Shown: in pieces, positions 28,482 to 49,400 of the stretch | Layout: each line of letters begins with the position of its first letter | Numbering within the stretch: position 1 is the first letter of the stretch | From: an uncultured Chloroflexia bacterium | Lineage (GTDB): Bacteria; Chloroflexota; Anaerolineae; JAAYZQ01 | Direction of reading: 5' to 3' | DNA: 64,000 nt | Assembly: GCA_963701775.1 (NCBI GenBank) | Contig: CAVPBH010000018.1 | Coordinates: forward strand, 184,568 to 248,567 | The notes under the pieces: model-generated | Told to the model about the DNA's origin: nothing | The model's database searches: none | Seen by the model: only the letters and a program-made list of their open reading frames with translations | Program-made: the position numbers and the translations under genes

Positions 28482-30455
28482 TTAAGGCAGGGCGTAGCGC
28501 AGGATGTACAGCCCGCCATCAAAATCGGCGATGTAGACGTTGGCGCCGTCGACTGCCACATCAAGCGCCCAGCCGGGCGTGTCAAACCAGCCGACCTCAA
28601 CTGGGTGCCTTGGGCGGGTGACGTCGATCACGCGCAGGCCATTGTCTCCATCAGCGATGTAGGCCAGCACCCGCCCTCCCGAGGCGTCGCCCACCGCCAG
28701 AGCCGGCGCAGGGCCCTGCGCCTGGATCCAGCCAACTTGGACCGGGTTCTTCTTGTCGGCCATGTCGAGGACATACAGCCCGTACGACGAATCGGTCACA
28801 TAGGCCACGTTGCCGCGTACCACCACGTCCATCGCCTGCCAGGGCGTTTGAAAGACGCCGATCTCGGCCGGGTTGGCCGGGTCGGACACGTCCACGATGC
28901 GCAGGCCGCCCTGTCCGGCGGCCACATAGGCGTAGCGCCCATCCACCGCCACATTTTCGGGGTTGCCGGGTAGGGCCAGGAACCCGATCTCTACCGGTTG
29001 AGCCGGCTTGTGGATGTCCACGATGCTCAGCCCAAGACCATCCTGGCCGGTGTCGGCGATGAAGGCATAGATGCCGGATATCGCCACCTGCCAGGCATGC
29101 AGGTCGGGCGTTTCGTATTGCCCCACCTTCACCGGGTTCCAGCGATCGGATACGTCGACCACCGTGAGCCCTCCCCAGCCGGCCGCGCCGTAGAGGTAGT
29201 CGCCGCGCTGCGCGACGCGAAAGTACCACTGGCCCTCTGCCATCCCGGCCAGCACCGGCTGCGCCGGGTCGGCCACATCCAGGGTGCGCGCGCCATAGCC
29301 CGACTCGCCCAGGTAGGCCCAGCCCTCCGAGGCCGCGATGCCGTCGGCTTCGGTCGCCAGGTCATAGCCGCCCACCAGCCACGGCGCGGCCGGGTCGGAG
29401 ACGTCGAGCACACGCAGCCCGTGGGCCGCATCGGCGATATAGGCATAGCCGCCAGCCACGCCGACACCCCAGCGGGCATCGATGCCATAGGAGCCCACAT
29501 GGACGGGATCGGCCGGGCTATCGACTTCGAGTATGTCTAGGCCGCCGCTGACGCCGGAGGCGACGTACGCATAGCCCTGGTCGTAAGCCGTCCAGAAGGC
29601 CCAATCAGGCGTCTGGTAGAAAGCCGCCTCGGTGGGGTTTGCCGGGTCGGAGACGTCGATGATGCGCAGGCCACCCGGACCATCGGCCACAAAGGCATAG
29701 TGGCCGACAACCGTCACGCCGAAGGCCTCGCCAGGTGTGTCGTAGGCACCCAGCTCAAAGGGGTTGTGCGGGTCGCTCACGTCGATGATACGTAGGCCAG
29801 ACAGCCTATCGGCGATGTAGGCCAGCCCGCCGCTCATTGCCACGCCGGTTGCGTCGCCGGGCGTGTCGCAGGCACCCAGCTCAATCGGATACGCCGGCTG
29901 CGTCACGTCCACGACGCGCAGGCCGGCCTCACCATCGGCCACGTAGGCGTAGGGCATCTGCAAGGCCACGCCCAGCGCATGACCCCCGGGCAGCGCGGCG
30001 CGACCTACCTGCACTGGGTGCGCCGGGTTCGTGATCTTGACGACCACCAAGCCCGCGTCGTCTACGGCGACGTAGGCATAACTCCCCGCGACGGCAGTGC
30101 TACCCGCCACACCGGGCATCGGCGCCGTCTGCCCGCGCAGCGCCGGGGCGGCTGGGTCGGCGATGTCCATCAGAAGGAGGCGTGGGCCGCTGCACATCGC
30201 GAGTAGTCCGTCTATGACGACCGGCGGGCACTGCCAGCCGCCGATCTGCCCTACCAGCGACACGTGCCACCGATTGGGAGGCGGCGATGGGGTAGGAGTA
30301 GGCGTAGGAGCAGGAGTTGGCGTGATGCTCGCTGCGCCGGTGCCGGCCGGTGCCCCATCCGAAAACACACGCAGCCGGCCCCACAGGGGACCGGCTGCCC
30401 AGACCAACACAAGAACCGATATCAGGCCCACTCGCAGGAATGGCGTGCGCTTCAT
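28482..30455 (-). CDS. secreted LVIVD-repeat beta-propeller protein
   Basis: The ATG at 30455 has an AAGGAG RBS. Signal peptide MKRTPFLRVGLISVLVLVWA, a TPTPAPTPTPTPSPPP linker, then ~14 LVIVD-type repeats (YAYVADGEAGLRVVDVTQPAYP...). The ORF-track start at 30716 is a spurious extension. Confidence 0.75.
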   Translation of the reverse strand: MKRTPFLRVGLISVLVLVWAAGPLWGRLRVFSDGAPAGTGAASITPTPAPTPTPTPSPPPNRWHVSLVGQIGGWQCPPVVIDGLLAMCSGPRLLLMDIADPAAPALRGQTAPMPGVAGSTAVAGSYAYVAVDDAGLVVVKITNPAHPVQVGRAALPGGHALGVALQMPYAYVADGEAGLRVVDVTQPAYPIELGACDTPGDATGVAMSGGLAYIADRLSGLRIIDVSDPHNPFELGAYDTPGEAFGVTVVGHYAFVADGPGGLRIIDVSDPANPTEAAFYQTPDWAFWTAYDQGYAYVASGVSGGLDILEVDSPADPVHVGSYGIDARWGVGVAGGYAYIADAAHGLRVLDVSDPAAPWLVGGYDLATEADGIAASEGWAYLGESGYGARTLDVADPAQPVLAGMAEGQWYFRVAQRGDYLYGAAGWGGLTVVDVSDRWNPVKVGQYETPDLHAWQVAISGIYAFIADTGQDGLGLSIVDIHKPAQPVEIGFLALPGNPENVAVDGRYAYVAAGQGGLRIVDVSDPANPAEIGVFQTPWQAMDVVVRGNVAYVTDSSYGLYVLDMADKKNPVQVGWIQAQGPAPALAVGDASGGRVLAYIADGDNGLRVIDVTRPRHPVEVGWFDTPGWALDVAVDGANVYIADFDGGLYILRYALP

Positions 30456-30587
30456 CGGGTCACACTCCTTTCTTCCTCTAGGACGGCGAGCAGTCCGAGA
30501 AGGTTCCCTCAGGCAGGGGCACGCACGAATGGGCACGAGGCCCTGCACCACGAGCGGGGGGACGGGCACAGCGCCCCGAAATGGAAC

Positions 30588-30616
30588 CTCCCCGAAAGCC
30601 ACAGGCTTTCGGGGAG
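30588..30616. terminator. perfect 13-bp stem hairpin CTCCCCGAAAGCC-aca-GGCTTTCGGGGAG
   Basis: Seen directly in the sequence, downstream of the minus-strand gene 30682-31266. There is no T-tract. A related hairpin lies at 33587-33615. Confidence 0.35.
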
Positions 30617-30681
30617 GTGTTACCTTCCAATCCAGGCCGGTCCTGTGCCGGTTTTGGGCAGGCACCAGGACTCTACGGCTG

Positions 30682-31266
30682 CTAGCAGACGGGGCACTCC
30701 TCACCCCCCGCAACAAGTCTTGCTTTGCCGAGCTCTATGCCCACGGCACCCAACAGCGGATCGACGCTGTCGTAATCACGACCCATGGCGGCCAGGCTGC
30801 GAGAATCGATCCTGATCCCTACGGCGCCCAGCAGCGAGTCCGTAGCGAGGGCCGCGTCACGGGCGATCTGAGATCTGAGCCTCTCGACGTAGAAGGCCGA
30901 GATGTCCGTCTGGGGCTTGGCCTGCGCCCGGAGTCTCTCAACGTAGTAAGCCGAGACATCGGTGTAGCGCAGGCCCGGGTCCACCCGGAGCGGGACGCTC
31001 GCCAGGATCAGCCCCGCAACTTCGGGGAACGGCTCTTCGCGGTCACTTTCGCTTGCGAGCACAACGCGCGCGAGGACCGGCCCCGCGACCTCGGGGAACG
31101 GCTCTTCCCGGTCGCCTTCCTGCGCGAATACTACCGAGCCCGGAAGGGATCCCAGTGGCCCCAACACCAGGGCCACGATTATGAGGGCCGCCAAGGCGAC
31201 CCACGCGTATTTGGTTCTTGGTACTTGAGCGACGTCGCTCCGACTCTGGGTTCTGCCAGTCATCAT
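30682..31266 (-). CDS. membrane-anchored protein with internal tandem repeats
   Basis: N-terminal TM helix (YAWVALAALIIVALVLGPL). The peptide repeats EGDREEPFPEVAG.., TDVSAYYVERLR.. and LLGAVGI.. each occur twice, encoded by ~45-bp and ~66-bp tandem DNA repeats at 30895-31130. Confidence 0.55.
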   Translation of the reverse strand: MMTGRTQSRSDVAQVPRTKYAWVALAALIIVALVLGPLGSLPGSVVFAQEGDREEPFPEVAGPVLARVVLASESDREEPFPEVAGLILASVPLRVDPGLRYTDVSAYYVERLRAQAKPQTDISAFYVERLRSQIARDAALATDSLLGAVGIRIDSRSLAAMGRDYDSVDPLLGAVGIELGKARLVAGGEECPVC

Positions 31267-31551: not shown

Positions 31552-32734
31552 ATGGCACAAGCGAACACGGCAGGCAAGGCGTTCACCCCCGGCCGCATCG
31601 GCGGGCTGGAGCTGCGCAACCGGATCATCCGCGCCGGCTGCTTCGAGGGGATGAGCCAAGGGGGACGCGTCACCCCGGCCTTGATCGAGCACCATCGCCG
31701 CGTGGCCGCCGGCGGCACGGCGATGACGACCGTGGCCTACTGCTCCGTCTCGTTCGACGGGCGCGCCTTTGGCCACGAGCTGTGGATGCGGGAGGAGATC
31801 GTGCCCGGCCTGCGCGAGCTGACGGACGCCGTGCACCGCGAAGGCGCGGCGGCGTCGATCCAGCTCGGCCACTGCGGTTTTTTCGCCAGCCCCAAGGAGA
31901 TCGGACTGCGGCCCATCGGCGCGTCGCGCAAGCTGTGCCTCTTCCGGATGTCGCGCTGCGAGGAAATGACGGAGGCGCAGATCGAGACCAAGATCGAGGA
32001 GTTTGCCCAGGCGGCCCGCTGGGCGCGGCAGGCCGGATTTGACGCGGTCGAGATCCACTCCGGGCACGGCTACCTGCTCAGCCAGTTCCTCTCGCCCTGG
32101 ACCAACCACCGCCGCGACCGCTACGGCGGCTCGTTGGAGAACCGGCTCCGCTTCCCCGCGGCGGTGGTGCGCGGCGTGCGCGCAGGCGCTCGGGCCTGGC
32201 TTCCCTGTGCTGGTGAAGATGAACCAGCGCGACGGGATGCGCGGCGGGCTGGAGATGGAGGAGGCGGTGCAAATCGCGCAGCGCTACGAGGCCGAGGGGG
32301 CCAGCGCTCTGGTGCCGAGCTGTGGCTTTACCGCCAAGACGCCGCTGTACATGATGCGCGGCGACGTCCCGACGCGGGAGATGGCACGCAACCAGGCCCA
32401 GCTCATGACGCGCATGGGGATGCTGCTTTTCGGCCGCTTCATGGTGCAGCGCTATCCGTTCGAGCCGCTCTTCCTGCTGGAGGGGGCGGTCCGCCTCCGG
32501 CAGGCGGTGTCGATCCCGGTGGTCTACGTGGGCGGCGTGCTGTCTCTGGCCGACCTGGAGCGGGCGATGGAGACAGGCTTCGAGTTTGTGGAGGTGGGCC
32601 GGGCGATCGTCAAGGACCCCGAGTTCGTACACAAGCTGCAGTCCGGCGCGCTGGAGGCGTCGGACTGCGATCACTGCAACCGGTGCATCGCGACGATGGA
32701 TGCCGGCGGGGTGTACTGCCCGACGGAGACGTAG
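31552..32734 (+). CDS. NADH:flavin oxidoreductase (Old Yellow Enzyme family), frameshift at ~32195
   Basis: The ATG at 31552 follows AGGGAGG. It is OYE-like up to ...RLRFPAAVVRGVR. The C-terminal half (QALGPGFPVLVKMNQRDGMRGG...CDHCNRCIATMDAGGVYCPTET*) is in the +1 frame. Comparison with the paralog at 35028-35888 points to one extra base in gtgcgcgcaggcgctc. Confidence 0.8.
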
Positions 32735-33891: not shown

Positions 33892-35025
33892 CTACGCTCT
33901 CAGTGTTAGTCTCAAACTTTGTCGTTTGGCTTGATGGCGCTCTCCGGCAAGCCAGCGGGCTGCACGTCGCAGATTGACTGCTGCCCCGGTGAACAATGCC
34001 TGCAAGTGGATCTTGGCAGTGCTGACGTAGCGCCCGATGCGGATGCCATGTCCTCGGACCAAAGCCGACAGACAGCCTTCGACCCCTCCTCGATGCTGAC
34101 GATACAGTGTTTTGAACTCCGCGGTTTCTTGGCGGGTACGTGCCGCTTGCAGGGCCAGGTAGTTCCGACCCAAACTGATGTGCCGCCCACCTTTGCCTGT
34201 GCAGCACCGGGGCCGCAAAGAGCAAGCAGCGCAGACCGCCTTCGGAAAGCGGAAGACCAAACGCTTGCCTCGCTTTGTGCCGACGATTGCCTTCTGACCT
34301 GCTGGGCAGATCGCTGTGCACTCTGCCAGGTTCACTTCGAATTGCGCCAGGGTGATGCCATCGGGCAGTCGGGATTGCAGCCGATTGTCTTTTTTCGCCG
34401 GCCCGATCAGGTCGATGCCCCGCTCACCACTACCAACCAGGTTGTCCTCCGTCACATAGCCACCATCGCCCAATTGCTGTCCGGGCAGCAGGTCTCGTGC
34501 CTCGAGCCGGTTCTGGATGGCTTCCAGCGCGCGGTAGTCCGTCTCCACACTGCTGGTGATGGCGATATCCGTGAGCAGGTGTGGCTTGTCTTCGTCATCC
34601 GTCTCCGTTGCTTGCAGTTTGTAGCCTACCCAGCCCTGCCCTCTCTTCTCGCTGTAGCGGGCCTCGGGGTCGTGGGGCGTAACGATGTGCGTCCTGCCAT
34701 CATAGACCCCTGCATCCCGAGCCACCAAGTCCCCTCCCACAACCGTGAACTGCTGCTGCCACGTCGTGACCAACACCTGGACCGCAGGCAAGTCCCGCAG
34801 CTTGGCTGCATTCCCATCTGCCTCTATCCGCTCCAGGAGCCACTGCCCATCGGGTCCTACCCGCCTGGCCAGCGCCTCCCGTTCGGCTTCGGTCAGCTTC
34901 TCGATCACACACCGCTGGCCGTAGCTATCTTCCCATGTGGCCGGCACTGCCGCTCTTGTCCAGGTTTCGTCTTCTTTCAACAAAGCCTGCAAAGCCAGCC
35001 GCACAGTCTCCACCCACTGCTCCAT
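33892..35025 (-). mobile_element. IS1182/IS5-family DDE transposase, 5'-truncated
   Basis: 377 aa with DPEARYSEKRGQGWVGYKLQ, a DDE core and a C-terminal ...RYVSTAKIHLQALFTGAAVNLRR. It lacks the usual ~100-aa N-terminal HTH region. Its start codon abuts, within 2 bp, the truncated OYE paralog. No terminal inverted repeats were identified. Confidence 0.65.
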
Positions 35026-35027
35026 TC

Positions 35028-35888
35028 GACGGGCGCGCCTTTGGCCACGAGCTGTGGATGCGGGAGGAGATCGTGCCGGGCCTGCGCGAGCTGACGGATG
35101 CCGTGCACCGCGAAGGCGCGGCGGCGTCGATCCAGCTCGGCCACTGCGGTTTCTTCGCCAGCCCCAAGGAGATCGGGCGGCGGCCCATCGGCGCGTCGCG
35201 CAAGCTGTGCCTCTTCCGGATGTCGCGCTGCGAGGAGATGAACGAGGCGCAGATCGAGACGAAGATCGAGGAGTTTGCCCAGGCGGCCCGCTGGGCGCGG
35301 CAGGCAGGATTTGATGCGGCCGAGATCCACTCAGGGCACGGCTACCTGCTCAGCCAGTTCCTCTCGCCCTGGACCAACCACCGGAGGGACAGGTACGGAG
35401 GATCGCTGGAGAACCGGCTGCGCTTCCCGGCGGCGGTGATGCGCAGCGTGCGGCAGGCGCTCGGGCCGGGCTTCCCGATCCTGGTGAAGGTGAACCAGCG
35501 CGACGGGATGCGCGGGGGCGTCCCGACGCGGGAGATGGCCCGCAACCAGGCTCAACTCATGACGCGCATGGGGATGCTGCTTTTCGGCCGCTTCATGGTG
35601 CAGCGCTATCCGTTCGAGCCGCTCTTCCTGCTGGAGGGGGCGGTCCGCCTCCGGCAGGCAGTGTCGATCCCGGTGGTGTACGTGGGCGGCGTGCTGTCTC
35701 TGGCCGACCTGGAGCGGGCGATGGAGACAGGCTTCGAGTTTGTGGAGGTGGGCCGGGCGATCGTCAAGGACCCCGAGTTCGTACACAAGCTGCAGTCCGG
35801 CGCGCTGGAGGCGTCGGACTGCGATCACTGCAACCGGTGCATCGCGACGATGGATGCCGGCGGGGTGTACTGCCCGGCGGAGGAGTAG
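35028..35888 (+). pseudogene. truncated paralog of the 31552-32734 OYE gene
   Basis: Nearly identical to the first copy from FDGRAFGHELWMREEIVPGL to ...DAGGVYCPAEE*. It lacks the first ~68 codons and has an in-frame ~39-codon internal deletion. The ORF-track N-terminal extension to 34935 is antisense to the transposase. Confidence 0.65.
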
Positions 35889-36041: not shown

Positions 36042-38413
36042 CTATGGGATGGTGACGGTGTCGCACGTCTCACCATTCTGGTCCGGGTCGTAGACCCAGC
36101 CGGAGAGCACCACATCCGTTATGCAGATTTTCCAGGTGCCGAGCTGGTTGAGAAGTACCTTGAAACTCGCGGCGCCCAGGGGGTTGGTCAGACTGACTTG
36201 CGCCTTCGGCCTGCCGCTGGGCGGGATCCACTCGGCCTGCACACTCGCTCCTGCCACCGGGCCGCCGCCGGCGTCCAGGACACGCACCAGGCCCCGGATC
36301 GCGAAGCGCCAGTGGCCCAGGTAGACGACCCTCAGCTTGATCCACTCCACGTGCATCGCTCCCAGCGGCGCTACCGTCACGGTCTGCTGCACAGACTCTT
36401 GCCCGCACGCGTTGCTTGCCGTCATGGTGACGGCATAGTCGCCGAAGGCGGCATAGGTGTGCGATGCCGGGTTGCCGGTGTCCGTCCCGCCGTCGCCAAA
36501 GTTCCAGGCGTAGTCGATGGGCTCACTGCCAGCGGCGGTGCCGGTGACGGTCACCACCTCGCCCATGGTCGGCGACGGGGAATCCACGTGAAGCCGGTGC
36601 CCGACACCGGCTCGAGCACCTTCAGCTGCACCGCCAGAGCCACCTGCGGCGTGTCGGGGTCGTTGCTGTTGACGAGCAGGCTGCCGGCGTAGGTGCCGGC
36701 GCCCAGCCCGGCCGAGTCAAAGGTAAGGATCACGTCCACACACTCGCCCGCGAGGAGCGTCGTGCCCGCCGGCTCCTCGGTCAGCCAGTCGAGTGCCTCC
36801 GACAGGCTCCAGACCAGGTCGGCCGTGCCGGCATTGCAGATCTGGACGGCAAGCTGCGCAGACCCGCCGGGGCAGAGCTCCGCTTCGAGCAGCGGCGCGG
36901 TCACCACGATGTTGGGGAAGGGAGGCGTCTCCACCTGGACGAGCTGGCCCAGGACCTCCACCTCGCCTTCCGCCAGCGGTGCCACGTCGTCTTCGCCCTG
37001 CCAGGCCACTAGGACCAAGTCACCGCCGGCCTGCGCGGCCAGGGCGGGCCGGCCGGCGCCGTAGGCGGGGTCGCCGTCGGGCCCGGCATCGCTGAGGCGC
37101 ACCGGGTCGCCGGCCAGGTCGCCCGTGCCTTCCAACATCTGGCAGAAGACCTCCATCTCGTCGTCGGCCAGCGGTCCGCTGCCCCAGTCGTGGTTGTCGT
37201 CGCCACGCCATGCCACCAGGTAGCGCCCGGGCGCGGCCAGGTAGGCCACAGCCGGTGCCCAGGCCCGGTAGGCCGGGTCGCCATCGGGGCCCATGCTGCT
37301 GATGCGGAAGCCGCTCACACCGACGGGGCTGCCGTCGGCTGCCAGGCGCTGTCCGTGGATCTCAATCTCACCCAGAGACAGGGCCGGCCCCCCTTCGTCG
37401 CCCGCCCAGATGACCAAGTACTCGCCGGTGTCATCGTTGTAGGCCACCGCCGGCCGGCGCGCCTGGTAGGCCGGGTCGCCGTCCGGCCCGGCGGCGCTGA
37501 TGCGAAAGCTCGGCAGCCCCACCAGGCTGCCGTCGGCGGCCAGGCGCTGGCCAAAGACCTCGTACTCGTCGTCGACCAGGGGTTCAGCGTCTGTGTCCCC
37601 CTCCCAGGCGACCAGGCATTCGCCGGCATCGCCGCACGCCAGCGCGGGCTCCTGGCCTCGGAACCCGGTATCGGCCGGGTCCGAGCCCATCTGGCTGATG
37701 GAGAAATCGTTCACGCCTACCTCGGCCGCGGCTGCATCCAGCCGCTGGCCAAAAATCTCGACGGCGTTATCCATCGAGTCGTCCCCCTGCCAGGCCACCA
37801 GGTACTCGCCCGAAACGGCGTTGTGGGCGACGGCAGGGTTGAGGGCATCGAAGGCCGGGTCGCCGTCGGGGCCCATGTCGCTGATGCGCACCGCCGATCC
37901 GAGCAGGCTACCGGCGGCGTCCAGCCGCTGGCCGTAGATCTCGAGCTCTCCGGCGGCCAGCCCGGCGGCTGCGCCGCCGGCCACCCAGACGACCAGGTAC
38001 TCGGCGGCAGCCGGGTTGTAGACCAGAGCCGGGTCGCGGGCGTAATAGGCAGGATCGCCATCCGGCCCGGTGGTGCTGATCCGGAAGCGCGCGCCCAGCA
38101 GCGTGCCGTCGCCGGAGACGCGCTGGCCGTAGATCTCGAACTCGTCATTGCCCAGCGGCGCCGCCTCGTCGTCGGCAGCCCATACCACCAGGAACTCGTC
38201 GCCGTCCGGGTTGTGCGCCACGGCCGGGTCGAGCGCGTAGAAGCGGGTATCGCCGTCGGGCCCCATCGCGCTGATGCGCAGGTCATTGGGGCCGATCTCT
38301 CCGGCGATCCCCGGCTGCGCCGCGGCCGGACCGGCCTGCCCGCCGGCCAACGCCAGCAGGACAAGGACCACCACCAGGACGCCGCAGGTCAGAGCTGTTC
38401 TTTGTCTTGCCAT
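36042..38413 (-). CDS. secreted protein: seven ~55-aa RIS-MGPDGDPA repeats, a W-SLSE/SNDPD beta-sandwich, a PKD domain and the shared C-terminal domain; frameshift at ~36586
   Basis: ATG at 38413 with a GGAGGAGG RBS. Signal peptide MARQRTALTCGVLVVVLVLLALA. The repeats read NDxRISxMGPDGDPAxxAxxPAVAxN..EYLVVW..DD......DExEIxGQRL. The PKD domain (EPIDYAWNFGDGGTD) and C-terminal domain (..GTWKICITDVVLSGWVYDPDQNGETCDTVTIP) are in the overlapping frame. Confidence 0.7.
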
Positions 38414-38488
38414 GGTTCCTCCTCCGGGCGGGGTGATCCCCGCCCCTGCGGCAGCCGGTCCGTCAAGGGCCGGCAAGCCGCAACCCGG

Positions 38489-40405
38489 CTACTTCTCTGC
38501 CTGTGCTGCGAGCAGCTCCGCCACCAGGGCCTCCAGCGCGTCCAGCCGCAGACGAAGGTCTTCGTTCTCAGCGCTCAGCCGCGCCGTCTCGGCCTGCTCG
38601 GCCTGGAGCTGACTATACAGCTCCTGGATGCCGGCCAGGGCCACGCCGTTGGCGTCCAGCGGCGCGATGTGCTTGTCGTCCGCCCCCAGACCAAAGGCGG
38701 CGTAAAAGTCCTGCGCCGTGGGCCCCATGTGGCGGGCGCTCTCCCCCTTGTAGCTCCAAGTAAAGACGGGGAGCGCGGCAATGCGCGACAGGACGGAGGC
38801 CTGGCTCACGGCGCAGAAGCTCTCCTTGCGGTTCACGTCGGAGGCTTCGGTGAGCGCGCCCTCGATCGTCAGGTTCCCGCCCAGGTCGAGGACCGCCTTG
38901 GTTGTGCCGTTTACCTTCAGCTCGAGAGGGGCGGTTCCATACGACCCGACCCCCGTCGTCGCCGTCAGGCCGCCGGCCAGGTTCATGTTGCCGGCCCCGT
39001 CCCACTGTGCCACTATCGTGGGGCCGATCCGGACATTGAGCCCAGTTTCATTATAGATCTCTGGCGTCTTGACGAAATCGGCCGTGACGCCAAAGGCCGA
39101 GAGCTCACCGTATGGCCCGAGGCTCAAGGTGCCGTTGTTGCCCAGTGTCGCCCGCGTGACACCGTTGACGACGAGCTCCAGCGGCGCATCGGTGGGCGAG
39201 CCAACCTGCGCTGCCGTGTCGGTCGCGGAGAGGAAGGCATACGCACCGTCGGTGCGATGGGCCACCACCTGAGGGTTCTCGCCGGTTCGCACCACCTCCA
39301 GGTCATACTCCGGGGACCAGGTGCCGATGCCGACGTTTCCCGTGTTCTTGAGTGTCAGGCTATTGGTGGGCGTGCCGGGCTGGATGCGGAAGGGCAGCAA
39401 GTCGCCCGCGGTCACGTCGCGCACGAAAAAGTTGGACTCGTTGCCGGAGACATCCCACACCTGGGGCGTCCAGCCACCTGATGCATCCTGGTCCAGGCGG
39501 ACGGTCGGCGTGTCCCCCCACACGCTGTGCAGGCTCTTGACAGGCGTCGATGTCCCCAGGCCAACCCGGCCCGAATCCGAGACAAAGAACGAGTTGGTCC
39601 GCGCGCCGGCCATGATCTTGAAGGGCTCCTTGCTGTTCGTCGAGTCCTGGATCTTCAGGTAGTTGGCGCCGCCCGAGCTGGAATCGTTGGCAATGATCCG
39701 CCAGTCGTTGAAGGGGAAGCCCGGCGTCGCGCTGGTATCGTCGAAGTAGATCTGGATGTTGTTCTCTTTCAGCTTGAGAGTATCAAAACCAAAGTTCTCC
39801 GATCCATCCGTAAGGCAGTCGAAACCGAGGCACTCGCTACCGGTGACGATCAGGTCGTCGGATACGACATAGTCCTCGATCTGGCCTCCACCGGTCGCTC
39901 CCGGCTCCTCGCCGCCGACGACGATCACTCCCGCCTCGATGCGAAAGTGGCCCGATGCCCGGAGGCCGCCGCCCGGGAGCTGCCCGGTTCGCTGCAGCTC
40001 GGCCACTACCTGTTCGCGCTCGGCGCTATCCGCGGCGGCATCCAATGCCGCCTGGGCCTCGGCCGACAGCCGGGGCCGGAAGGTCAGCTCGTAGCTGTAC
40101 GTGCCGTCGGTCACTGCCATGTCGTCCACATGGAAGACAGGGGACTCGCCGGCCGCGAACTCTTTCTGCCACACACTCCCGCCCGGCCCCTGCACGGTGA
40201 GCGCCGCGCCGGCCGCCTCCGCCAGCGGCTGCCAGGTGATCGACTCGGGTGTGACCGTCGCCGTAGCGACATTCTGACCACCATCCTGCGCAATGACACC
40301 TTGGGCAAGGGACGCTGCCCCCACCTGTACCTGGCCGGGGCCCGCTACCAGCGACAGCACCAGCACCACCAACAACGCACTGCCGAGAACAAGTCTTGCT
40401 TTCAT
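38489..40405 (-). CDS. secreted tail-fibre-like protein with C-terminal S74 intramolecular-chaperone domain
   Basis: Signal peptide MKARLVLGSALLVVLVLSLVA. The central part has Gly-rich beta-helix-like repeats. The C-terminus (SDVNRKESFCAVSQASVLSRIAALPVFTWSYKGESARHMGPTAQDFYAAFGL...IQELYSQL plus coiled coil) matches the S74 auto-cleaving chaperone module of phage tail fibres and endosialidases. Confidence 0.7.
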   Translation of the reverse strand: MKARLVLGSALLVVLVLSLVAGPGQVQVGAASLAQGVIAQDGGQNVATATVTPESITWQPLAEAAGAALTVQGPGGSVWQKEFAAGESPVFHVDDMAVTDGTYSYELTFRPRLSAEAQAALDAAADSAEREQVVAELQRTGQLPGGGLRASGHFRIEAGVIVVGGEEPGATGGGQIEDYVVSDDLIVTGSECLGFDCLTDGSENFGFDTLKLKENNIQIYFDDTSATPGFPFNDWRIIANDSSSGGANYLKIQDSTNSKEPFKIMAGARTNSFFVSDSGRVGLGTSTPVKSLHSVWGDTPTVRLDQDASGGWTPQVWDVSGNESNFFVRDVTAGDLLPFRIQPGTPTNSLTLKNTGNVGIGTWSPEYDLEVVRTGENPQVVAHRTDGAYAFLSATDTAAQVGSPTDAPLELVVNGVTRATLGNNGTLSLGPYGELSAFGVTADFVKTPEIYNETGLNVRIGPTIVAQWDGAGNMNLAGGLTATTGVGSYGTAPLELKVNGTTKAVLDLGGNLTIEGALTEASDVNRKESFCAVSQASVLSRIAALPVFTWSYKGESARHMGPTAQDFYAAFGLGADDKHIAPLDANGVALAGIQELYSQLQAEQAETARLSAENEDLRLRLDALEALVAELLAAQAEK

Positions 40406-40624: not shown

Positions 40625-43402
40625 TCAGGGCACCGTCTTTGTGTCGCAGCTCTCATAGTTCTGAAGCGGATCATACCTGTACCCACTCTTGATGACGTTC
40701 GTCACGCACACGCGATATGTCCCGGTCTGCTTGGAGGAGACCAGGAACTTGGCCTTGCCGAGCAGGTTGGTGAGGACGACCTGCGACGTCGTCGTGCCAT
40801 TGGGGAGGGTCCAGGTAGCGTAGACAAGGGCACCCGAGACCGGCCTCCCGGCATTGTTCAAGATGGGGACCTCGCCGCTGACCTTCCAATAGGTGAACAG
40901 CCTCATCGCGCCCATCAGGATGTTGCCGACGTGCAGTGACGGCACAGCGGACGTCACCTGGATGGTCACGGTAGCGGTGTCGCACATGCCGAACGTGTCG
41001 CAAACACGGTACGTGAAACTGTCCGTGCCCGTCCAGGGAGAGGTCGGGGAGTAGGTGAAGGTGCCGTTGCCGTTGTTTACCACCGTGCCGTGGGCCGGCA
41101 CCGTGACCACCGCCGCCGTCGTGGGGTCCAGGTTGCCGTCGGGATCGACGTCGTTGGCGGTAGCATTGATCAGGACGGCTTTGCCCGTAGCGGTGGTGGC
41201 CGAATCGTCGCGGGCGTCCGGCGCCCAGTTGGCCCGCACCGTCACGGTGTTTTGCACCAGCTCCCCTCCACAGACGTTCCAGGCACTCATCGACACCAGG
41301 TGGTCGCCGGGGGCGTCATAGACGTGCACGACCGGGTTGTCGCCCTGGATAAGGCCGTCCGGCAAGGATTCCTCCGAGTCGAACGCCCAGGTGAAGACGA
41401 TTGGCGCGGAGCCTTGCGCAGAGCCCGTGAAAGTCGTCGGCTGGCCCACACTCGGCATTGCCGGATCCCAGGTGAAGGCCAGGTCGTGAAGCGGCTCGAG
41501 CACTTCCAGGTCAGCCGGAACGGTCACCTGCGACTCGTCGGGGTCGTTGCTGGAGACCTGGATGCCAGCGGAGTACTGCCCTGGCGCCAAGCCTGCCGAG
41601 TCGAAGGTCACGGTCACGTCGCGGCACTCGCCGGGTGGTATGCTCCCGCCGAGCGGCTCCTCGCGCAGCCACGAGACCGAGTCAGCGGCGACCTGACCGT
41701 CGATCCGAAAAGCCAGGTCATGCGGCCAATCGGGGCTCCCCGCCTGGACTCGCCACGAGACCCATCCCTCGTGCCCCCCACCCCAGTGGTCCATGGGGTC
41801 GATGAACTGGGCCTCCTGTCCGTTCTCCGTCGTGCCAAAGTACCAGTAGAAGGCGTCTTCCTCGAAGCTGGCGAACTCGGGGAAGAAGAGGAGCCACCAA
41901 GAGCCCGAAGGCACAGCCAGTGACCCGCCCAGGGCGGCCACGAGGTCGAGCGTGACGTCGCCGTTGTACTGCCCGCCGATGGTAACCGCCGGATCGTCGG
42001 GGGAAGTGCTCCAGCACCAGAACTCGCCGCCGATGAGTGGGTGGCCCGCCGGCACCCCGCCGGCGTCCGGGTATATGCACCAGTGAAGCGCGGAAGCGTG
42101 GCTCATGCTGCCCCACCACATGGCGCCGGGGACGAAGATCGACTCGATGCTCCACGGCTCCAAGTTCACAAAGTCGTCGGCGGAAAAATCACTCCAGCCG
42201 TCGACGGTATACATATCGGAGTGTCCGGTGTTCTGGGCGAGGGTTGATTGGTCCCAAAGGATCCCTTCCGGCCGTCCCTTCCTTTCGCCTGCCATCTCGG
42301 ACAGGATCCAGGTGAGAGCCCCGTCCCCGGTGTTGCAGACCTGGAGTGTCTGAGTGGTGGTCGTATCGGGGCACAGTGTGGCGCTGAGGGACACCGGGCT
42401 CACGTCGATGTCGGGCTCGGTCACGGTGATTGCTTGTGTCACGCTTTGCTGGCCGCAGCCATTGTCGATCGTGAGCGTCACCTGGTATGTGCCCTTAGCC
42501 GCATAGGTGTGTGTTGCCACAGAGCCGATGCCCGTATCGCCGTCGCCAAAACCCCATTCGTACTGGATCGGCTCGCTGCCCTCGCCGGTACCCCGGAAGG
42601 TGACCTGCTGGCCCACGTTCGGGCCGGCCGGCAGCCAGGTAAAGCCGGCACCATGCGCGGGATCGAGCGCGGTCAGGCTGACGGGAACCAGCAGGCGCGG
42701 CGTCTCGAAATCGTTGCCCTGCACCAGCAGGCCACCCGCGTAAGAGCCGGGTGCCAGACCTGCCGTGGTGAAGGTGACCGCCACGCTCGTTTCGTCTCCG
42801 GGAATGACCGTCCCCCCAGTCGGGTCCTCGCTCAGCCAGGGAATATCGGCCTGGGGGCCGGCATAGGCCTCCACGCGCAAGGCCTTGCCTCCCGATCCCG
42901 TATTCCAGCTATCCCCGTACCAGATGGCGGATGGCGAGTTCTCGTCTGTCGCAGCTTGGGCCCAGAACCATTGGCCATAGGGCTGGATTGCCATGTCCAT
43001 ATAGAAGATGAGCCACCAGTGGCCGGCGGGCACGGCAGCGCACTGCCGGTGGCTAGCAGCAGGTCGAGCGTAACGTCGCGCCCCGCAGTCGATCGTCACT
43101 CCCGGGGCACCGGGCGACAGGCTCAGGTTCCAGACGTCGAGCCCATCGCCCGGCACTCCGCCCGGCTGCCCGCCGGCATCGGCGTAGAGGTACCAGCGAA
43201 ACGCACTGGCGTTGGCCGGGTCGGACGAATACTCACCGCCGCCGACGATGATGCGGGAAATCTCCCACGGCTCGGCGTTGACCAGGTCCTCTGCCGAGAA
43301 GGTGCAATAGCCATAGTCGGTGAAGCACTGCGAGGCAGACGAATAGGGACCTTCCTCGAGCTGCTCCGCCAGCGCCGGCTCGGGCGGCCGCTCGGACAGC
43401 AT
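40625..43402 (-). CDS. giant secreted adhesin-like protein, fragment 4 of 4 (C-terminal)
   Basis: Contains two SQCF...GHWWL-FY...QWFW domains, two W-SLSE/SNDPD modules, PKD domains and a cadherin-like domain (ANDVDPDGN). It ends in the shared C-terminal domain (TGTYRVCVTNVIKSGYRYDPLQNYESCDTKTVP). The upstream frame is joined at a G-run near 43395. Confidence 0.6.
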   Translation of the reverse strand: MLSERPPEPALAEQLEEGPYSSASQCFTDYGYCTFSAEDLVNAEPWEISRIIVGGGEYSSDPANASAFRWYLYADAGGQPGGVPGDGLDVWNLSLSPGAPGVTIDCGARRYARPAASHRQCAAVPAGHWWLIFYMDMAIQPYGQWFWAQAATDENSPSAIWYGDSWNTGSGGKALRVEAYAGPQADIPWLSEDPTGGTVIPGDETSVAVTFTTAGLAPGSYAGGLLVQGNDFETPRLLVPVSLTALDPAHGAGFTWLPAGPNVGQQVTFRGTGEGSEPIQYEWGFGDGDTGIGSVATHTYAAKGTYQVTLTIDNGCGQQSVTQAITVTEPDIDVSPVSLSATLCPDTTTTQTLQVCNTGDGALTWILSEMAGERKGRPEGILWDQSTLAQNTGHSDMYTVDGWSDFSADDFVNLEPWSIESIFVPGAMWWGSMSHASALHWCIYPDAGGVPAGHPLIGGEFWCWSTSPDDPAVTIGGQYNGDVTLDLVAALGGSLAVPSGSWWLLFFPEFASFEEDAFYWYFGTTENGQEAQFIDPMDHWGGGHEGWVSWRVQAGSPDWPHDLAFRIDGQVAADSVSWLREEPLGGSIPPGECRDVTVTFDSAGLAPGQYSAGIQVSSNDPDESQVTVPADLEVLEPLHDLAFTWDPAMPSVGQPTTFTGSAQGSAPIVFTWAFDSEESLPDGLIQGDNPVVHVYDAPGDHLVSMSAWNVCGGELVQNTVTVRANWAPDARDDSATTATGKAVLINATANDVDPDGNLDPTTAAVVTVPAHGTVVNNGNGTFTYSPTSPWTGTDSFTYRVCDTFGMCDTATVTIQVTSAVPSLHVGNILMGAMRLFTYWKVSGEVPILNNAGRPVSGALVYATWTLPNGTTTSQVVLTNLLGKAKFLVSSKQTGTYRVCVTNVIKSGYRYDPLQNYESCDTKTVP

Positions 43403-44009: not shown

Positions 44010-44910
44010 TGCCGCCGGGGCAGAGCGTGGAAGAGAGGGACGGTGGTGTCACGGCGATGTCGGGTTCCAGGTCGCAGACGTCGCCCACGCCGTCGCCGTC
44101 AGAATCCGCCTGGTCGGGGTTTGCTACGCTCGGGCAATTGTCGCAGAGATCGCCCACACCGTCTTCGTCGCTATCCGCCTGGTCGGGGTTGTAGGTGGAG
44201 GGGCAGTTGTCGCAGGCGTCGCCCACGCCGTCCAGGTCCGCGTCCGCCTGGTCGGGGTTGTAGGTGTTGGGACAGTTGTCGCAGGCATCGCCTGCGCCGT
44301 CGCCGTCGGCGTCCGCCTGGTCGGGATTGTAGGTGCTGGGACAGTTGTCGACGGCGTCTGGCACCCCATCGCCGTCAGAGTCCGGCTGGACAGTCACTTG
44401 GTGCTGCACCACTTGCTGGCCGCACGCATTGCTCACCGTCAGCGTCACGGTGTAGCTGCCGGCGCTGGCGTAGGTGTGCCCGACCTGCGAGCCAGAGCCG
44501 GTCCCACCGTCGCCAAAGGTCCAGGAGTATGTGAAGGGCGGGCTCCCCTGCGCCGTCGCGTTGAAGGTCGCGGGTTGGCCTGCCACCGGCGCTGCCGGGC
44601 TCCAGGTGAAGGCAGGTTCGCTGGGCGGCGCGCAGCCCGAGACGACGACCACCTGGCGAGTGACCACCTGCTGCCCGCAGGAGTTGCTCACCGTCAAAGT
44701 CGCCGTGTAGGTGTCGGGCGTGGAGTAGGTGTGGACGACCTGCAAGCCGCTACCGGTCCCGCCGTCGCCAAAGGCCCACGAGTAGGTCAGCGGCGTGTTG
44801 CCCTGCGCTGTCGCATTGAAAGTTACCGGCTCGCCCGCCACCGGCTGAGCCGGACTCCAGGTAAAGTCGCCGGCACTCGGCGGCGCGAGCACCGTGAGCC
44901 CGGCCGGCAC
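43861..44910 (-). CDS. giant secreted adhesin-like protein, fragment 2 of 4
   Basis: Two PKD domains followed by four thrombospondin type-3-like Ca-binding repeats ([19 protein letters not shown]). Confidence 0.55.
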
Positions 44911-45838
44911 CGAGAATCGATGGGGTGTCCGGGTCGTTGCTCGAGACGGTAAGGCTGCCGGAGTAGCTGCCGGGCGCCACGCCGACGGAGCTGAAGGTGG
45001 CTGTCACCGAGGCACAGGCACCGGCGTCCAGCGCGCCGGACGTGGGGGCGGCGCTCAGCCACGCGAGGCTCTCGGACAGGCTCCAGGTGAGCTGCGCCGA
45101 GCCGTTATTGCAGATCTGCAGTGTCTGGCTGGTCGAGGTCTCCGGGCACTGCTGTGCCGAGAGGGAGGTAGGGCTCACGGCAATGTCGGGCTCGACGGTG
45201 ATTGTGCCCTCCAGCCGGAAGGCCTTGCCCATCCCCAGCCAAGCGTACCACGTGCCGTCCATCCCAAGCCTGGCGGGCAGCCAGGGATCGGCCCCCCCCG
45301 AATTCCAGAACCACTGCCCGTACTGCAGGATCGACATGTCCACGTAAAAGACAAGCCACCAGTGGCCGGTCGGCACGCTCAGCACGCTGCCCTGCGCCTG
45401 AACCAGATCGAGGGTGACGTCTGCCCCCGAGATCGTCACCCCCGCAGCCGTAGGCCCCCGGCTCAGGCTCCAGGCCTGGCTCCCAGGATAGCCGCCCGAA
45501 TCGGTGTACAGGCGCCAGTTGAGGGCGTTGGCGTAGACCGGACTGATCCCCCAGTCATAGCCGTCGATAAAGATCTTTTCGATTTTCCACGTCCCGCTGG
45601 TGACAAAATCGTCGGCGGTGAACGTGCATCCGTAGCCGGGATCGAGGAAGCACTGGGAAGCAGTCGCCTCGTCCCCCTGCGCAACTTGCTCGTGCAGGAT
45701 GCTGTCCAGTCCCGACGGCACTCCCTCTTCTCCCCCGCGCACGATGCGCACTGGCTCGGGGGCAGAAGCCTGGCCGGAGGCGGCCGGCACCGAAGCCAAC
45801 AACAACGCCACGACAATCAGCCAACTGAATCTGCGCAT
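44750..45838 (-). CDS. giant secreted adhesin-like protein, fragment 1 of 4 (N-terminal, signal peptide)
   Basis: Signal peptide [22 protein letters not shown], an SQCF-type domain and a W-SLSE/SNDPD module. The frame breaks after ...SSNDPDTP at ~44915. Confidence 0.6.
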
Positions 45839-45936
45839 TCTTCTCTCCTGTGGGTTCAGCTTTGGGCGTTTCCTGCGCGCCGTTTCGCACGCTTGCCATT
45901 ATGCTCACCTCAGGTCTACGGGCACCTCATCATTCA

Positions 45937-46170
45937 TCATGCAGCGCTCTCACGGGGTTCCGGAAGATCTCCCCCGCCGGCGAAGGCCTCCTCTTCCAGG
46001 AACTGTAGCAGCCCTGCCAGGCCGGCAAAGCACCGCTCATCGCCGCTCTGGACGCTGTGCACAAGGACGCGCCAAGGCGCACCCGGAGACTCGCGCCACA
46101 GGCGCAGCAGATAGCTGCGGTAGCGTTCTGGATCGGCGATGGGAACGGCGATTCGCTCGGTCTCACCCAT
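45937..46170 (-). CDS. small hypothetical protein (77 aa)
   Basis: MGETERIAVPIADPERYRSYLLRLWRESPGAPWRVLVHSVQSGDERCFAGLAGLLQFLEEEA... with a GGAAGAGA RBS. It is divergent from the regulator gene. The evidence is weak. Confidence 0.35.
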   Translation of the reverse strand: MGETERIAVPIADPERYRSYLLRLWRESPGAPWRVLVHSVQSGDERCFAGLAGLLQFLEEEAFAGGGDLPEPRESAA

Positions 46171-46427
46171 ACGTCTCTTCCATGACCCACTGGGTACGCT
46201 GTGCGAATTGTTCTGAAGGCTGCAGCAAAGCTGTCGCGACGCGTGGTGCGACAGCGTGGATCATACTCCATCGCTGTGACGAAAGTGTGACGGGACCACT
46301 GAGACGGATGAGAACGTTGAGGACACTGAGAGGTGGGAAGGATGGTGCGCCGGCGTTGACGAAATCTTGGAACTGTAGTACGATGCGGATGTACAAGACC
46401 CCGCAGTGCTGGGGAGAAAGGGCTTTA

Positions 46428-49400
46428 ATGCAGGCACGGCTGAAAATCCGCCTGCTGGGGACCTTTGACGTGGTCCTCGACGGCGCGCCCCTGGCGGGCT
46501 TCCGGTCGGCCAAGGTGCGCGCGCTGCTTGCCTACCTGGCGGTCGAGACGGACGCCCTTCATCGTCGCGAGGCCCTGGCAACCCTCCTGTGGGGCGAATT
46601 TCCCGAGCGCGACGCCCAGCGCAGCCTGAGCCAAGCGCTAAGCAACCTGCGCGGCCTGCTTGCGCCCCTCTCGCCGGAAGCGGCACCGCCGGGGCCGGGT
46701 ATGGAAACCCGACCTACGGCCTCTGCTCCTTCGGAGCCGGTGCTGGAGATCACCGGCCAGAACGTTCGCCTGCGCGTGGAGCCGGAGCGGGCGTGGGTGG
46801 ACGTGCACGCCTTTGACGCACTCCTGGGGGCTGCCGGCCTGCGCGGCGCCGCGGCGCCGGAAGGCTCCGCCCAGGCCAGGCTGCTTGCCCAGGCGATCGA
46901 TTTGTATCGCGGTCCCTTCCTTTCCGGCCTGTCGCTGCCCGACAGCCCGGAATTCGAGGAGTGGCGGCTACTCCAGCAGGAGCAGCACCACCAGGCCGCG
47001 CTGCTCGCCCTGGAGCGGATGGTCGACCACCACCTGGCGGAGGGGCACACGGACGAGGTAGAGCGTTTTGCCCGCCGGCAGCTCGGGCTCGAACCCTGGA
47101 ACGAGGTCGCCCACCAGAGCCTGATGCTTGCCCTGGCGCTCAGCGGCCGGCGGGGGGCGGCCCTCCGCCAATTTGAGACCTGCCGCAGCGTCCTGGCCGA
47201 TGAGCTGGGCGTCGAGCCCTCGGCCGAGACCGAAGCGCTGCGCAGGCAAATCCGCGATGGCACCTGGAACGATCTGGCGCCGCCTGCCCGCAGCCCGGCT
47301 GGCGCCTTCTCTGGCCTGTCTCCTTCTGCCTTTGTGTCCCGGGAGCGGGAGACGGCGCGGCTCGAGCACTTCCTCGACCTGGCGCTCGCCGGGCAGGGAC
47401 ACGTCGTCCTGGTCACCGGCGAAGCGGGGACGGGCAAGACGGCACTCCTGGCGCACTTTGCCAAGCGCGCGGTGACGGCCCACCGGAGATTGGTAGCGAC
47501 CGCCGGGCGATGTAGCGCCTTCGCCGGCCTGGGCGATCCACTCCTGCCCTTTCGCGAGATCCTCCAGGGGCTCTGCTGCGAGGCATCGAGTGTTTCTGCC
47601 GGCTCCTCCCAGAACCCGGACCACATGCGCCGGCTGTGGGCGCTCTTTCCTTCGGCAGCCCAGGCTCTGGTTGAGCACGGCCCCGACCTGGTCGGCCGCT
47701 TTGTGCCGGTCGAAGATCTGGAGGCCCGCGCCGCGACCCTGGCCCCGCCCGGGGCGTCCTGGCTGGCGCGGCTTGCCGAGCTGAAAGTGGCACGGTCAGG
47801 AGACCGGCCACAGCGAGCTGCGCTCCAGGAAGCGCTCTTTGACCAGGTGACGCGCGTCCTGCTGACCATCGCCCGCAGGCAGCCCCTGCTACTACTCATC
47901 GACGACCTACAGTGGGCCGATGCGGCCTCTCTCAGCCTACTATTTCACCTGGGGCGGCAGCTTACCGCCTCCCGCATCCTGGTCGTCGGCGCCTACCGGC
48001 CGAGCGAGGCAGTGCAAGAAGACCCTGGCAAAGACCCTACGGGTCTTCCGAGACCCCTAGGGTCTATGGCCCACGAGTTTGCCCGGCAGTGGGGCGACAT
48101 CCGCATCGACCTGGATCGGGCAGGGGGCCGGCGCTTCGTCGATGCGCTGCTGGATGCCGAGCCAAACCGGCTCGGAGAGGCCTTTCGCGAGAGGCTGACC
48201 CGCCATACCGGCGGCCACCCCCTCTTCACAGTCGAGATGCTGCGCGCCTTCCAGGAGCGGGGCGAGCTGGTGCTCGACGAGGAGGAGCGCTGGGTCGAGG
48301 GGCCGGCGCCGCACGGCGAGGGGTTGCCGGCGCGCGTCGAGGCGGTCATCGGCGAGCGCATCGACCGGCTGCCGCGCGCCTGGCGCCGGGTCCTGGAAGC
48401 GGCCTGCATCGAGGGGGAGACGTTCAGCGCCGAGGTGGCTGCCCGCGCCACCGGCACAGAGCCGGCCTGGGTGCGCGAGCTGCTGAGCGGCCCGCTCTCT
48501 GCTGAGAGCCGGCTGGTGCAGCCGCTCGGGGTGCAGCTCCTGGGGGACACGGGAGGGGCTCTGTCGCGCTATCGCTTTGGCCACGCCCTCTTCCACGAAT
48601 ACCTGTGCTGCCACATGGACGCAGTGCAGCGGTCGAGGCTGCACGCCGAGGTGGGCGGCGCCCTCGAGACACTCTGCCGGGGCGAGCAGGTCGCGCTCGC
48701 CGAGGTCAGCCCGCAACTGGCGCACCACTACGAGGAGGCTGGGCTGGCCGGCCAGGCGGCGCACTTCCTGCTCTTGGCCGGGCGCCGCGCCACACGCCTG
48801 ACGGCCTACTCGGAGGCAATCTCCCTCTATCAGCGTGGGCTGGCCCAACTGGAACAGGTGCCTGGGTCAGACGAGCGTAGCCGGCGGCAGATCGAGCTCT
48901 ACTTGGCGCTCGACACCCCCCTCTACGCCGCACGCGGCTGGGGCGCGCCCGAGCGGGCCCAGCTCCTCCACCATGCACACCGCCTAGCCCGCCGCCTGGA
49001 TGAGCCCGAGCCGCTCATGCGCGTCCTACTCCTGCTGACTGACATCCACACCTGGCTGGGGGAAGACCTCCAGGCGCTACAGTGCGCCGAGGAGCTGCTC
49101 TGCCGGGCGGAGGTCGAGCAGGACACATTCTACCTGGCAGCCGGCCACCTGGCCGCCGGGCTGAGCAATCTCCCCCAGGGGCACCTGGCCGCAGGGCGCA
49201 TTCACCTGGAGAGGGCTTGGGCGCTCGGGTCACCCGGCGCAGGGCAGCCTGCCGCCCAGGGGCCGGCGGAGCAGCGGCCGGTGCGCCCGCCGCTGCTGCC
49301 GGTTGCCGACACGGACCTGGCCGCTACCGCGCTCACCTGGCTGAGCACTACCCTGTTTTTGATGGGCTACGGCGACCAGGCCCTCTCCGCCAGCCGGCGT

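Follow-up and report, generated by a model that had tools for sequence, protein, structure and literature searches.

Background

Among described structures, the closest in fold to the protein considered here is the C-terminal beta-propeller domain of CylK (PDB 7RON/7ROO), the Friedel-Crafts alkylating enzyme of cylindrocyclophane biosynthesis, of which BrtB is a homologue. The loops of this propeller are long and folded outwards, and each junction between blades holds a Ca2+ site in the connecting loop, an architecture that its authors called structurally distinctive. The CylK active site also needs an N-terminal Ca2+-binding cap domain, which supplies Arg105 (PMC8916777). Both CylK and BrtB have been annotated with NHL repeats (PMC7081238), and homologues of CylK were defined by its authors as proteins of more than 24% identity. 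Other propellers are built from shorter repeats, those of WD40 proteins being about 40 aa long, or carry the calcium-binding DxDxDG motif, which has been reviewed together with them (PMC9218822). Here we analyse a gene coding for seven tandem repeats of about 65 aa, located in a stretch of 64,000 nucleotides from an uncultured Chloroflexia bacterium (assembly GCA_963701775.1, contig CAVPBH010000018.1, positions 184,568 to 248,567). This whole stretch is referred to below as the window, and coordinates are counted from its first nucleotide.

The repeats constitute a new sequence family of a familiar fold rather than a new kind of system, and this family is very common in uncultured bacteria. 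On balance, we favour the view that the protein is a secreted or cell-surface, non-catalytic and probably Ca2+-stabilised binding head. In what follows we examine the repeats, their predicted fold and their conservation, compare them with the named propeller systems, and weigh the alternatives that the comparisons bring up.

Seven repeat units and their predicted fold

The repeats are contained in an open reading frame (ORF) of the minus strand (36551..38476). Anchoring on G[PS]D and GQ[RLM] split the translation into seven tandem units at amino acids 66-518 (window 36923-38281), whose lengths are, in order, 65, 65, 62, 66, 66, 69 and 60 aa and which are 41-57% identical to one another. All seven share (F/V/L)R(I/L)S..G(P/S)D..., PA(V/L)A, (Y/F/C/V)LV(V/A/I)W and E.E(I/V)..Q. 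A unit profile of 66 positions, built from 95 family units of which two came from this protein, matched exactly seven stretches in P0001, an identical database copy of 620 aa, with an E-value of 1.5e-160; the repeats are thus far beyond chance and the observation is real. The family consensus reads FRISDMGPDGDxxFxAxxPAVAYNxxxNEYLVVWxGDDxTxxLVDxExEIFGQRLxAxTGxEVGxND. This repetition is visible in the protein only: the DNA copies have diverged so far that Tandem Repeats Finder detects no array of ~195-nt period.

A preliminary description of the window had already pointed out a regular seven-fold repeat at 36600-38300, and this regularity is confirmed, together with its suggestion of a seven-bladed beta-propeller (see below). 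Several details need correction. The period proposed at the time was about 55 aa, against the 60-69 aa measured here. The MGPDGDP core, described as invariant, is present as GPDGD in six of the seven units and as MGPDGD in three, Met being absent from units 2, 5 and 7 and unit 4 reading MGSDPADT. A second motif, [EIF]GQR[LV], does recur among the units, although the last two have CQML and GQLV in place of GQRL. Lastly, the repeats fall inside the extent first proposed, but its first part (36600-36920) codes for an Ig-like domain.

The fold was modelled with AlphaFold2 from an alignment (A1) of the 465-aa repeat region and 112 relatives (113 sequences). The resulting model, with a mean predicted local distance difference test score (pLDDT) of 95.6, a predicted template-modelling score (pTM) of 0.95 and every segment confident, consists of seven blades of four strands each, as a seven-bladed beta-propeller does, and this prediction makes the fold well supported. 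DSSP assigned 27 strands in total; each unit has four, and in the last blades one of them is interrupted and appears as isolated bridges. The strands of each unit correspond to xxPAVAYN (A), EYLVVWxGD (B), FEIFGQRLD (C) and xxVGxNDFRIS (D). A first strand, IAGEIGPNDLR, precedes unit 1, and from this position it appears in the model to serve as the fourth (outer) strand of blade 7, in the usual ring closure. We placed the loops according to propeller topology as summarised for the work on CylK (PMC8916777). On that basis the two acidic segments, namely the D-to-A linker SDMGPDGDxxFxA and the long B-C loop GDDxTxxLVDxE, should both be located on the top face, and the short variable A-B and C-D turns would be found on the bottom face.

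Symmetric conservation and paired acidic residues

Conservation at each position was measured over 773 units. Near-invariant residues include R, S and G of FRISDMG (91%, 97% and 96%, respectively), the Trp (98%), the two acidic residues of E.E (90% and 98%) and the Gln (89%), while the two glycines of the C-D turn are conserved in 81-85% of units. The family consensus is identical in all seven blades and no residue is conserved in one blade only, although such residues would be expected from a single asymmetric active site of the style found in CylK, virginiamycin B lyase, sialidases and GH43. Mean identity between different proteins amounts to 52% for units at the same blade position and 51% for units at different positions; positional individuality of the blades is almost absent. 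Two positional features do persist in the consensus of the 113 aligned relatives, in which the B-C loop of blade 3 is short and blade 6 carries an insertion; for a family that retains the former such a faint positional signal is unusual. Different blades of one protein share 57% identity on average, and this excess within proteins suggests either concerted evolution or a lineage-specific amino-acid composition. Conservation is lowest at the two residues before PAVAYN, the residue after the Trp and the central residue of E.E. By topology all of them would lie on the top face, with the two before PAVAYN at the top entrance of the central channel.

Acidic residues of adjoining segments tend to be kept or lost together. 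In the linker into blade k, the Asp of PDG co-varies with the first Glu of the E.E pair of the preceding blade, k-1 (pooled odds ratio 6.2, p 2e-9; Mantel-Haenszel 5.4, stratified by blade position), and the Asp that follows RIS does so with the second Asp of the GDD motif of blade k itself (pooled odds ratio 6.0, p 8e-14; stratified 5.6), all of these being statistics that ignore phylogeny. The protein of the window itself provides two cases of joint loss: blade 3 has NAVEIF and is followed by the deviant linker GSDPADT, and unit 2 combines RISTT with AGG in place of GDD. Joint retention of the acidic pairs is what a shared cation site predicts, with the linker joining ligands of the blade before and the blade after. 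A linker that joins ligands from two adjacent blades is also found in CylK, an arrangement like the one proposed here.

A large family with adhesin-type partners

A word-indexed search retrieved at least 1,720 relatives, of which those at 38-66% identity mostly cover 92-100% of the domain. When cluster representatives at 50% identity were searched exhaustively with the unit profile, 14,364 were recovered at E<=1e-3, 6,206 at 1e-10 and 1,910 at 1e-30. Among the best 150 members, most contain 7 or 14 matched stretches, that is, one or two propellers, as expected if seven units make up one closed domain; a few have intermediate numbers (6 to 13), in some cases perhaps because the profile missed repeats.

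All named members come from metagenome-assembled genomes (MAGs). Their sources comprise Candidatus Eisenbacteria, Anaerolineae, Promineifilaceae, Thermoflexales and other Chloroflexota, Planctomycetota, Acidobacteriota, Holophagae, Thermoleophilia, Acidimicrobiia, Binatia, Sumerlaeota, Saprospiraceae and Thermoanaerobaculia; Actinomycetota and Bacteroidota are thus among the phyla represented. The named relatives at 52-55% identity belong to Chloroflexi and Anaerolineae.

In 34 long members the partner domains are almost all of extracellular or adhesin type, DUF11 (10/34) and Por_Secre_tail (5/34) being accompanied by FG-GAP, Big_13, GEVED, Big_3_5, YDG, fn3, LTD, TSP3, dockerin, CARDB and HYR; across the relatives RTX, T9SS Por_Secre_tail, PKD and DUF4215 are also found. 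No enzyme domain recurs, a D-Ala-D-Ala ligase/ATP-grasp region at the N-terminus of P0123 being a single case.

The gene neighbourhoods of three relatives that were examined are completely different, which is in keeping with a surface protein that works alone, not with an enzyme of a pathway. Likewise, all-against-all clustering of the ORFs of 39 loci revealed no widely recurring neighbour; the few clusters found in 4-7 loci are presumably alternative-frame ORFs of the propeller gene or reflect synteny among close genomes. Beside one homologue, in the Anaerolineaceae MAG contig JACKAT010000003.1 (10137-17171, minus strand), lies a gene for a 2,344-aa protein with TCAD9, nSTAND1, AAA_16 and many WD40 repeats, a STAND NTPase fused to WD40 propellers, with PqqD and NTP_transf_5 genes upstream; this context is shared neither with the window nor with the other loci examined.

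Searches against known families

No significant Pfam-A match was obtained over the repeat region of the propeller protein, where GH43 remained below threshold (E 0.089, 12.6 bits against a cutoff of 32.2). NCBIfam and PADLOC contained nothing relevant to this region, and PHROGs gave one marginal match (E 0.004), for which that library states no function. In a Pfam scan of eight homologues at E<=10 the repeat was matched only by spurious short entries (Chromo, Ribosomal_L14, Colicin_E5 and DNA_binding_2), which are echoes of the YLVVW.GDD motif. The NHL model (PF01436) had no match at E<=1 in the window protein or at E<=10 in the eight homologues, and in the same proteins WD40, FG-GAP, VCBS and BNR models did not match the repeat. 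Precomputed tables list 'faint' matches to PF22847 (Glyco_hydro_43_rel) on many homologues, a lead that was discarded when direct hmmscan of the eight homologues at E<=10 did not reproduce them; a literature search on this accession found nothing. The precomputed domain table of the homologues, which derives from a newer Pfam release by its version numbers, includes no dedicated family either.

PDB sequences were searched at E<=10 with the protein, with a full-domain profile and with a single-unit profile, and yielded chance matches only (Psb28, fumarase and a phosphonate-binding protein). Homologues are named in their sources as 'hypothetical protein' or after a partner domain (RTX, DUF4215, T9SS), and a literature search for the motifs MGPDGD, EIFGQR and YLVVW brought up nothing relevant. 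The preliminary statement that the repeats match no common family therefore holds across Pfam, NCBIfam, PADLOC and PDB sequences, with the marginal PHROGs match as the sole hit of that library, and these searches brought out no unambiguous counterpart among described propeller or repeat families. Defining the repeat, which no library searched here names, would give a name to a domain in thousands of 'hypothetical' proteins.

Comparison with named propeller systems

Structure comparison of the model yielded, as two figures per match that are tabulated without labels, 38.2 and 370 for CylK (7RON), 32.9 and 310 for YncE, 29.5 and 292 for virginiamycin B lyase, 27.5-28.6 and 306-329 for the lectins BP39L, PLL and CV39L, 26-30 and about 290 for WD40 proteins, and 25-27 and 335-364 for integrin alpha chains. 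Foldseek also ranked CylK first (E 2.6e-12, TM 0.63). Although CylK is the closest in fold, identity in the structural alignment is 9-10%, below the value used by its authors to define homologues, and searches of PDB sequences at E<=10, by phmmer and with the two profiles, did not find 7RON. The NHL annotation given to CylK and BrtB finds no parallel in this repeat, which has no NHL match. The N-terminal beta-roll cap, which makes up half of the CylK active site, has no counterpart here, as the propeller starts about four residues past the predicted signal-peptide cleavage site; the RTX repeats of relatives are C-terminal (P0028, residues 468-503), unlike that N-terminal cap. Given the lack of a detectable sequence relationship, of an NHL signal and of a beta-roll cap, we do not assign the protein to the CylK family. 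CylK has its catalytic Tyr473 and Asp440 in specific blades and is associated with the halogenase CylC. In the present family no conserved residue is peculiar to one blade, and the Pfam-annotated neighbour genes in the window and in the loci of three relatives comprise no halogenase. CylK would be expected to be intracellular as a biosynthetic enzyme, whereas this protein is predicted to be secreted and is fused to adhesin-type domains.

A wider evolutionary proposal, which we put forward tentatively and regard as doubtful, is that the repeat represents a large unnamed lineage of extracellular, calcium-clamped seven-bladed propellers that is the non-catalytic sister or ancestor of the CylK/BrtB propeller. 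If so, the CylK scaffold would have been recruited from widespread bacterial surface-binding modules, and these modules would provide a diversifiable seven-fold binding platform in many uncultured phyla. Once the family is defined, the CylK propeller would also have its first close relatives in structure.

The matches that Foldseek placed right after CylK (E 1e-10 to 1e-8) were GH145, sialidases, GH93, rhamnose-glucuronate lyase and GH43. They raise the alternative that the protein is an enzyme, either a carbohydrate-active one related to the sialidase, GH43, GH93, GH145, PL25 and PL42 propellers or an alkylating enzyme like CylK and BrtB with its active site on the top face. The weak GH43 match and the faint PF22847 matches point in the same direction, and the protein would be extracellular, like many carbohydrate-active enzymes. 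Nevertheless, we find an enzymatic role quite improbable. The named hydrolases mostly have five or six blades against seven here, and their TM-scores are just 0.4-0.56. GH43 enzymes in particular are five-bladed, with catalytic Asp/Glu, and both the GH43 and the PF22847 signals lie far under threshold and could not be reproduced. The consensus of this repeat shows no recognisable SxDxGxTW Asp-box, and no BNR model matches it. The catalytic asymmetry of glycoside hydrolase and sialidase propellers is absent as well, for no conserved residue is specific to a blade and the positions expected at the top of the channel, the two before PAVAYN, are among the least conserved. The CylK cap with its Arg105 has no counterpart ahead of the propeller, which starts about four residues past the predicted cleavage site, and no sequence similarity to CylK or to any other PDB enzyme was detected at E<=10. 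Finally, halogenase, polyketide synthase and polysaccharide-utilisation genes were all absent from the neighbourhoods examined.

Triads of Arg, Glu and Trp are typical of the sites of propeller lectins such as AAL and RSL. A second alternative, which appears rather unlikely to us, makes the protein a heptavalent lectin comparable to PLL, BP39L or the fucose-binding AAL/RSL type, in which the Arg of FRIS, the Trp of LVVW, E.E and the Gln of GQR would shape seven inter-blade sugar pockets, metal binding not being the primary role of the acidic loops. The perfectly seven-fold symmetry of conservation agrees with this proposal, as do the conserved Arg, Glu and Trp themselves and the extracellular, adhesin-type partner domains. 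However, PLL (from Photorhabdus), BP39L and CV39L show no sequence similarity to the repeat, have shorter blades (354-362 aa for the whole protein against 465 aa here) and score no better than generic WD40 proteins in the structure comparison. Moreover, the motif is kept over several phyla and across the 14,364 clusters, which fits a fold-determining network better than a single ligand.

WD40 proteins are mostly intracellular, whereas the protein of the window has a predicted signal peptide and would be exported. Its units (~65 aa, range 60-69) are also longer than the ~40 aa of WD40 repeats, which carry GH...WD, and no WD40 Pfam model matches them. The combination of a conserved scaffold with variable top-face positions resembles that of protein-binding propellers such as WD40. 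The propellers of integrin alpha, FG-GAP and VCBS type, in turn, differ by their DxDxDG loop, where this family has DMGPDG[DN] with Gly at position 3, and none of their library models matches the repeat. Integrin Ca2+ loops sit in bottom-face hairpins, unlike the acidic motif of the present family, which by topology would lie in the top-face linker between blades.

Proposed role as a surface-binding head

The secreted binding head that we favour would operate as follows. The signal peptide would direct export of a multidomain surface protein, in which the seven units of ~65 aa would close into one seven-bladed propeller. The acidic segments DMGPDGD and GDD...E.E would create cation sites bridging neighbouring blades, most likely occupied by Ca2+ as in the CylK propeller, and inter-blade Ca2+ would stabilise the ring after export. 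Hypervariable positions of the top face would then set the ligand specificity of each protein, and the propeller would act as an adhesin- or lectin-type binding head on a stalk of Ig-like and PKD domains, with the C-terminal domain serving in anchoring or sorting. The nearly equal similarity of blades within and between positions and the lack of any blade-specific residue, being the opposite of a single asymmetric active site, are consistent with a non-catalytic function.

Several points weigh against this proposal. Glycoside hydrolases, lyases and sialidases are numerous among the fold matches. Where the acidic residues lie, how close they are to one another and whether they overlap with the Ca2+ sites of CylK are deduced from topology and from a co-variation analysis blind to phylogeny, and DMGPDG fits the classical DxDxDG calcium loop only partly owing to the Gly at position 3. 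Instead of a purely structural network, the conserved residues R, S, W, E and Q could make up seven equivalent sites for a ligand. In addition, the gene copy studied here is frameshifted, as discussed in the next section.

A propeller head on a secreted multidomain protein is familiar both as a fold and in its general role, and the surprise for a specialist would be modest. Protein designers may nevertheless take an interest in these highly symmetric blades, whose scaffold is conserved and whose top face is hypervariable at a few positions.

Gene structure and state of this copy

The true start of the gene is likely the ATG at 38413, as it is preceded at 4 nt by a ribosome-binding site, GGAGGAGG, and is also the start of the identical P0001. 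The probable signal peptide that follows was read by eye from the translation. Coordinates of the gene and of its parts are collected in Table 1.

Table 1. Features of the propeller gene and their positions in the window
Feature	Position	Strand	Remarks
Whole gene as reconstructed, about 790 aa	36042..38413	-	Signal peptide, 7-blade propeller, Ig-like, PKD, C-terminal domain; 1-nt frameshift
Shine-Dalgarno-like GGAGGAGG	38418..38425	-	4 nt 5' of ATG 38413-38411; read directly off the sequence
Probable Sec signal peptide, MARQRTALTCGVLVVVLVLLALAGGQAGPAAA / QPG	38318..38413	-	Basic N-terminus, hydrophobic core, A-x-A site
Seven-bladed beta-propeller domain, 465 aa	36920..38314	-	AlphaFold2 and fold comparisons
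Unit 1, aa 66-130	38087..38281	-	Motif split
Unit 2, aa 131-195	37892..38086	-	Without GDD motif and without Asp after RIS
Unit 3, aa 196-257	37706..37891	-	Short B-C loop; first Glu of E.E replaced by Ala
Unit 4, aa 258-323	37508..37705	-	Deviant linker MGSDPADT
Unit 5, aa 324-389	37310..37507	-	Motif split
Unit 6, aa 390-458	37103..37309	-	4-aa insertion in B-C loop
Unit 7, aa 459-518	36923..37102	-	Motif split
Ig-like domain	36623..36874	-	Weak HYDIN/VesB/CFA65-like (E 5e-5) and BACON_2 matches
1-nt frameshift, ...GFTW / DSPSPTMGEVV...	36575..36590	-	Assembly error or true pseudogene lesion
PKD domain	36372..36566	-	PKD_4, E 2.6e-14; downstream frame, ORF 36042..36587
C-terminal domain, ~100 aa	36045..36350	-	Weak Big_1 and CarboxypepD_reg matches

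Both library matches of the Ig-like domain (HYDIN_VesB_CFA65-like_Ig and BACON_2) are under the Pfam gathering score, and the domain is 47-51% identical to modules of a neighbouring 925-aa protein (40625..43402). The ORF of the repeats ends in ...GFTWIPRRRPWARW*, and the sequence continues in another frame as DSPSPTMGEVVTVTGTAAGSEPIDYAWNFGDG..., at the start of ORF 36042..36587. When the two frames are joined after FTW, the product aligns without a break over the junction with two Ig-like plus PKD modules of the 925-aa protein, at 47-51% identity. From this continuous alignment with a paralogue we conclude that the gene encodes about 790 aa and is interrupted by a 1-nt indel near 36575-36590.

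The frameshift may be either an assembly error or a real lesion. In the latter case the locus would be a dead copy without current function, in which the propeller and the Ig-like part have been split from the PKD and C-terminal domains. This we consider unlikely. In its favour, the change of frame by one nucleotide falls inside a module that aligns continuously with its neighbouring paralogue; the deposited P0001 stops at the same premature stop, and within 1-2 kb there are an insertion sequence and an oxidoreductase gene that is duplicated and damaged. Against a dead copy, both frames are otherwise intact over 2.4 kb, every motif position looks selected, and single-base indels are frequent as assembly errors in metagenome contigs. 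Even the truncated product would still keep the signal peptide, the whole propeller and the Ig-like domain.

The C-terminal domain is 43% identical to the C-terminus of the 925-aa neighbour, and may be a lineage-specific anchoring or sorting module. It is common to the propeller protein and to this PKD/Big_9 protein (40625-40990, minus strand), with an ending ...YDP.QN.E.CDT.T.P. An FG-GAP protein encoded at 54848-56563 has a Big_1 match at the equivalent C-terminal position (56300-56560, plus strand), possibly a third copy of the ~100-aa domain.

Surrounding genes in the window

The propeller gene is the last of three genes on the same strand coding for secreted proteins, the others encoding the 925-aa PKD/Big_9 protein and a 638-aa Peptidase_S74 protein. 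The latter (38489-40405, minus strand) lies directly upstream and has a hydrophobic, signal-peptide-like N-terminus, a C-terminal Peptidase_S74 domain (E 1e-7), known as the intramolecular chaperone of endosialidases and tail fibres, and then a coiled-coil-like tail. It also gave weak PHROG matches to tail-fibre and virion structural proteins; no further phage genes came to notice in its vicinity.

On the other side of the gene, a direct repeat of ~0.9 kb, 96-98% identical, occupies 31753-32652 and 35025-35806. Its copies correspond to a gene for an Old-Yellow-Enzyme-type NADH:flavin oxidoreductase. The distance between corresponding blocks goes from 3272 to 3154 nt; indels are therefore present in one copy, whose ORF departs from the oxidoreductase frame. 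Between the copies lies a DDE transposase gene (DDE_Tnp_1_6, E 5e-18; ORF 33892-35025, minus strand), and the duplication could be associated with the insertion sequence or be an assembly artefact.

Genes for large repeat proteins are dense in this region (28482-30716, 40625-43402 and 44750-45838 on the minus strand and 54848-56563 on the plus strand), coding for an LVIVD propeller (10 repeats, E 1e-116), the PKD/Big_9/cadherin-like protein, a BACON_2-like protein and the FG-GAP propeller. A gene for a 1,463-aa BTAD-AAA_16-TPR regulator (45699-50090, plus strand) adjoins them.

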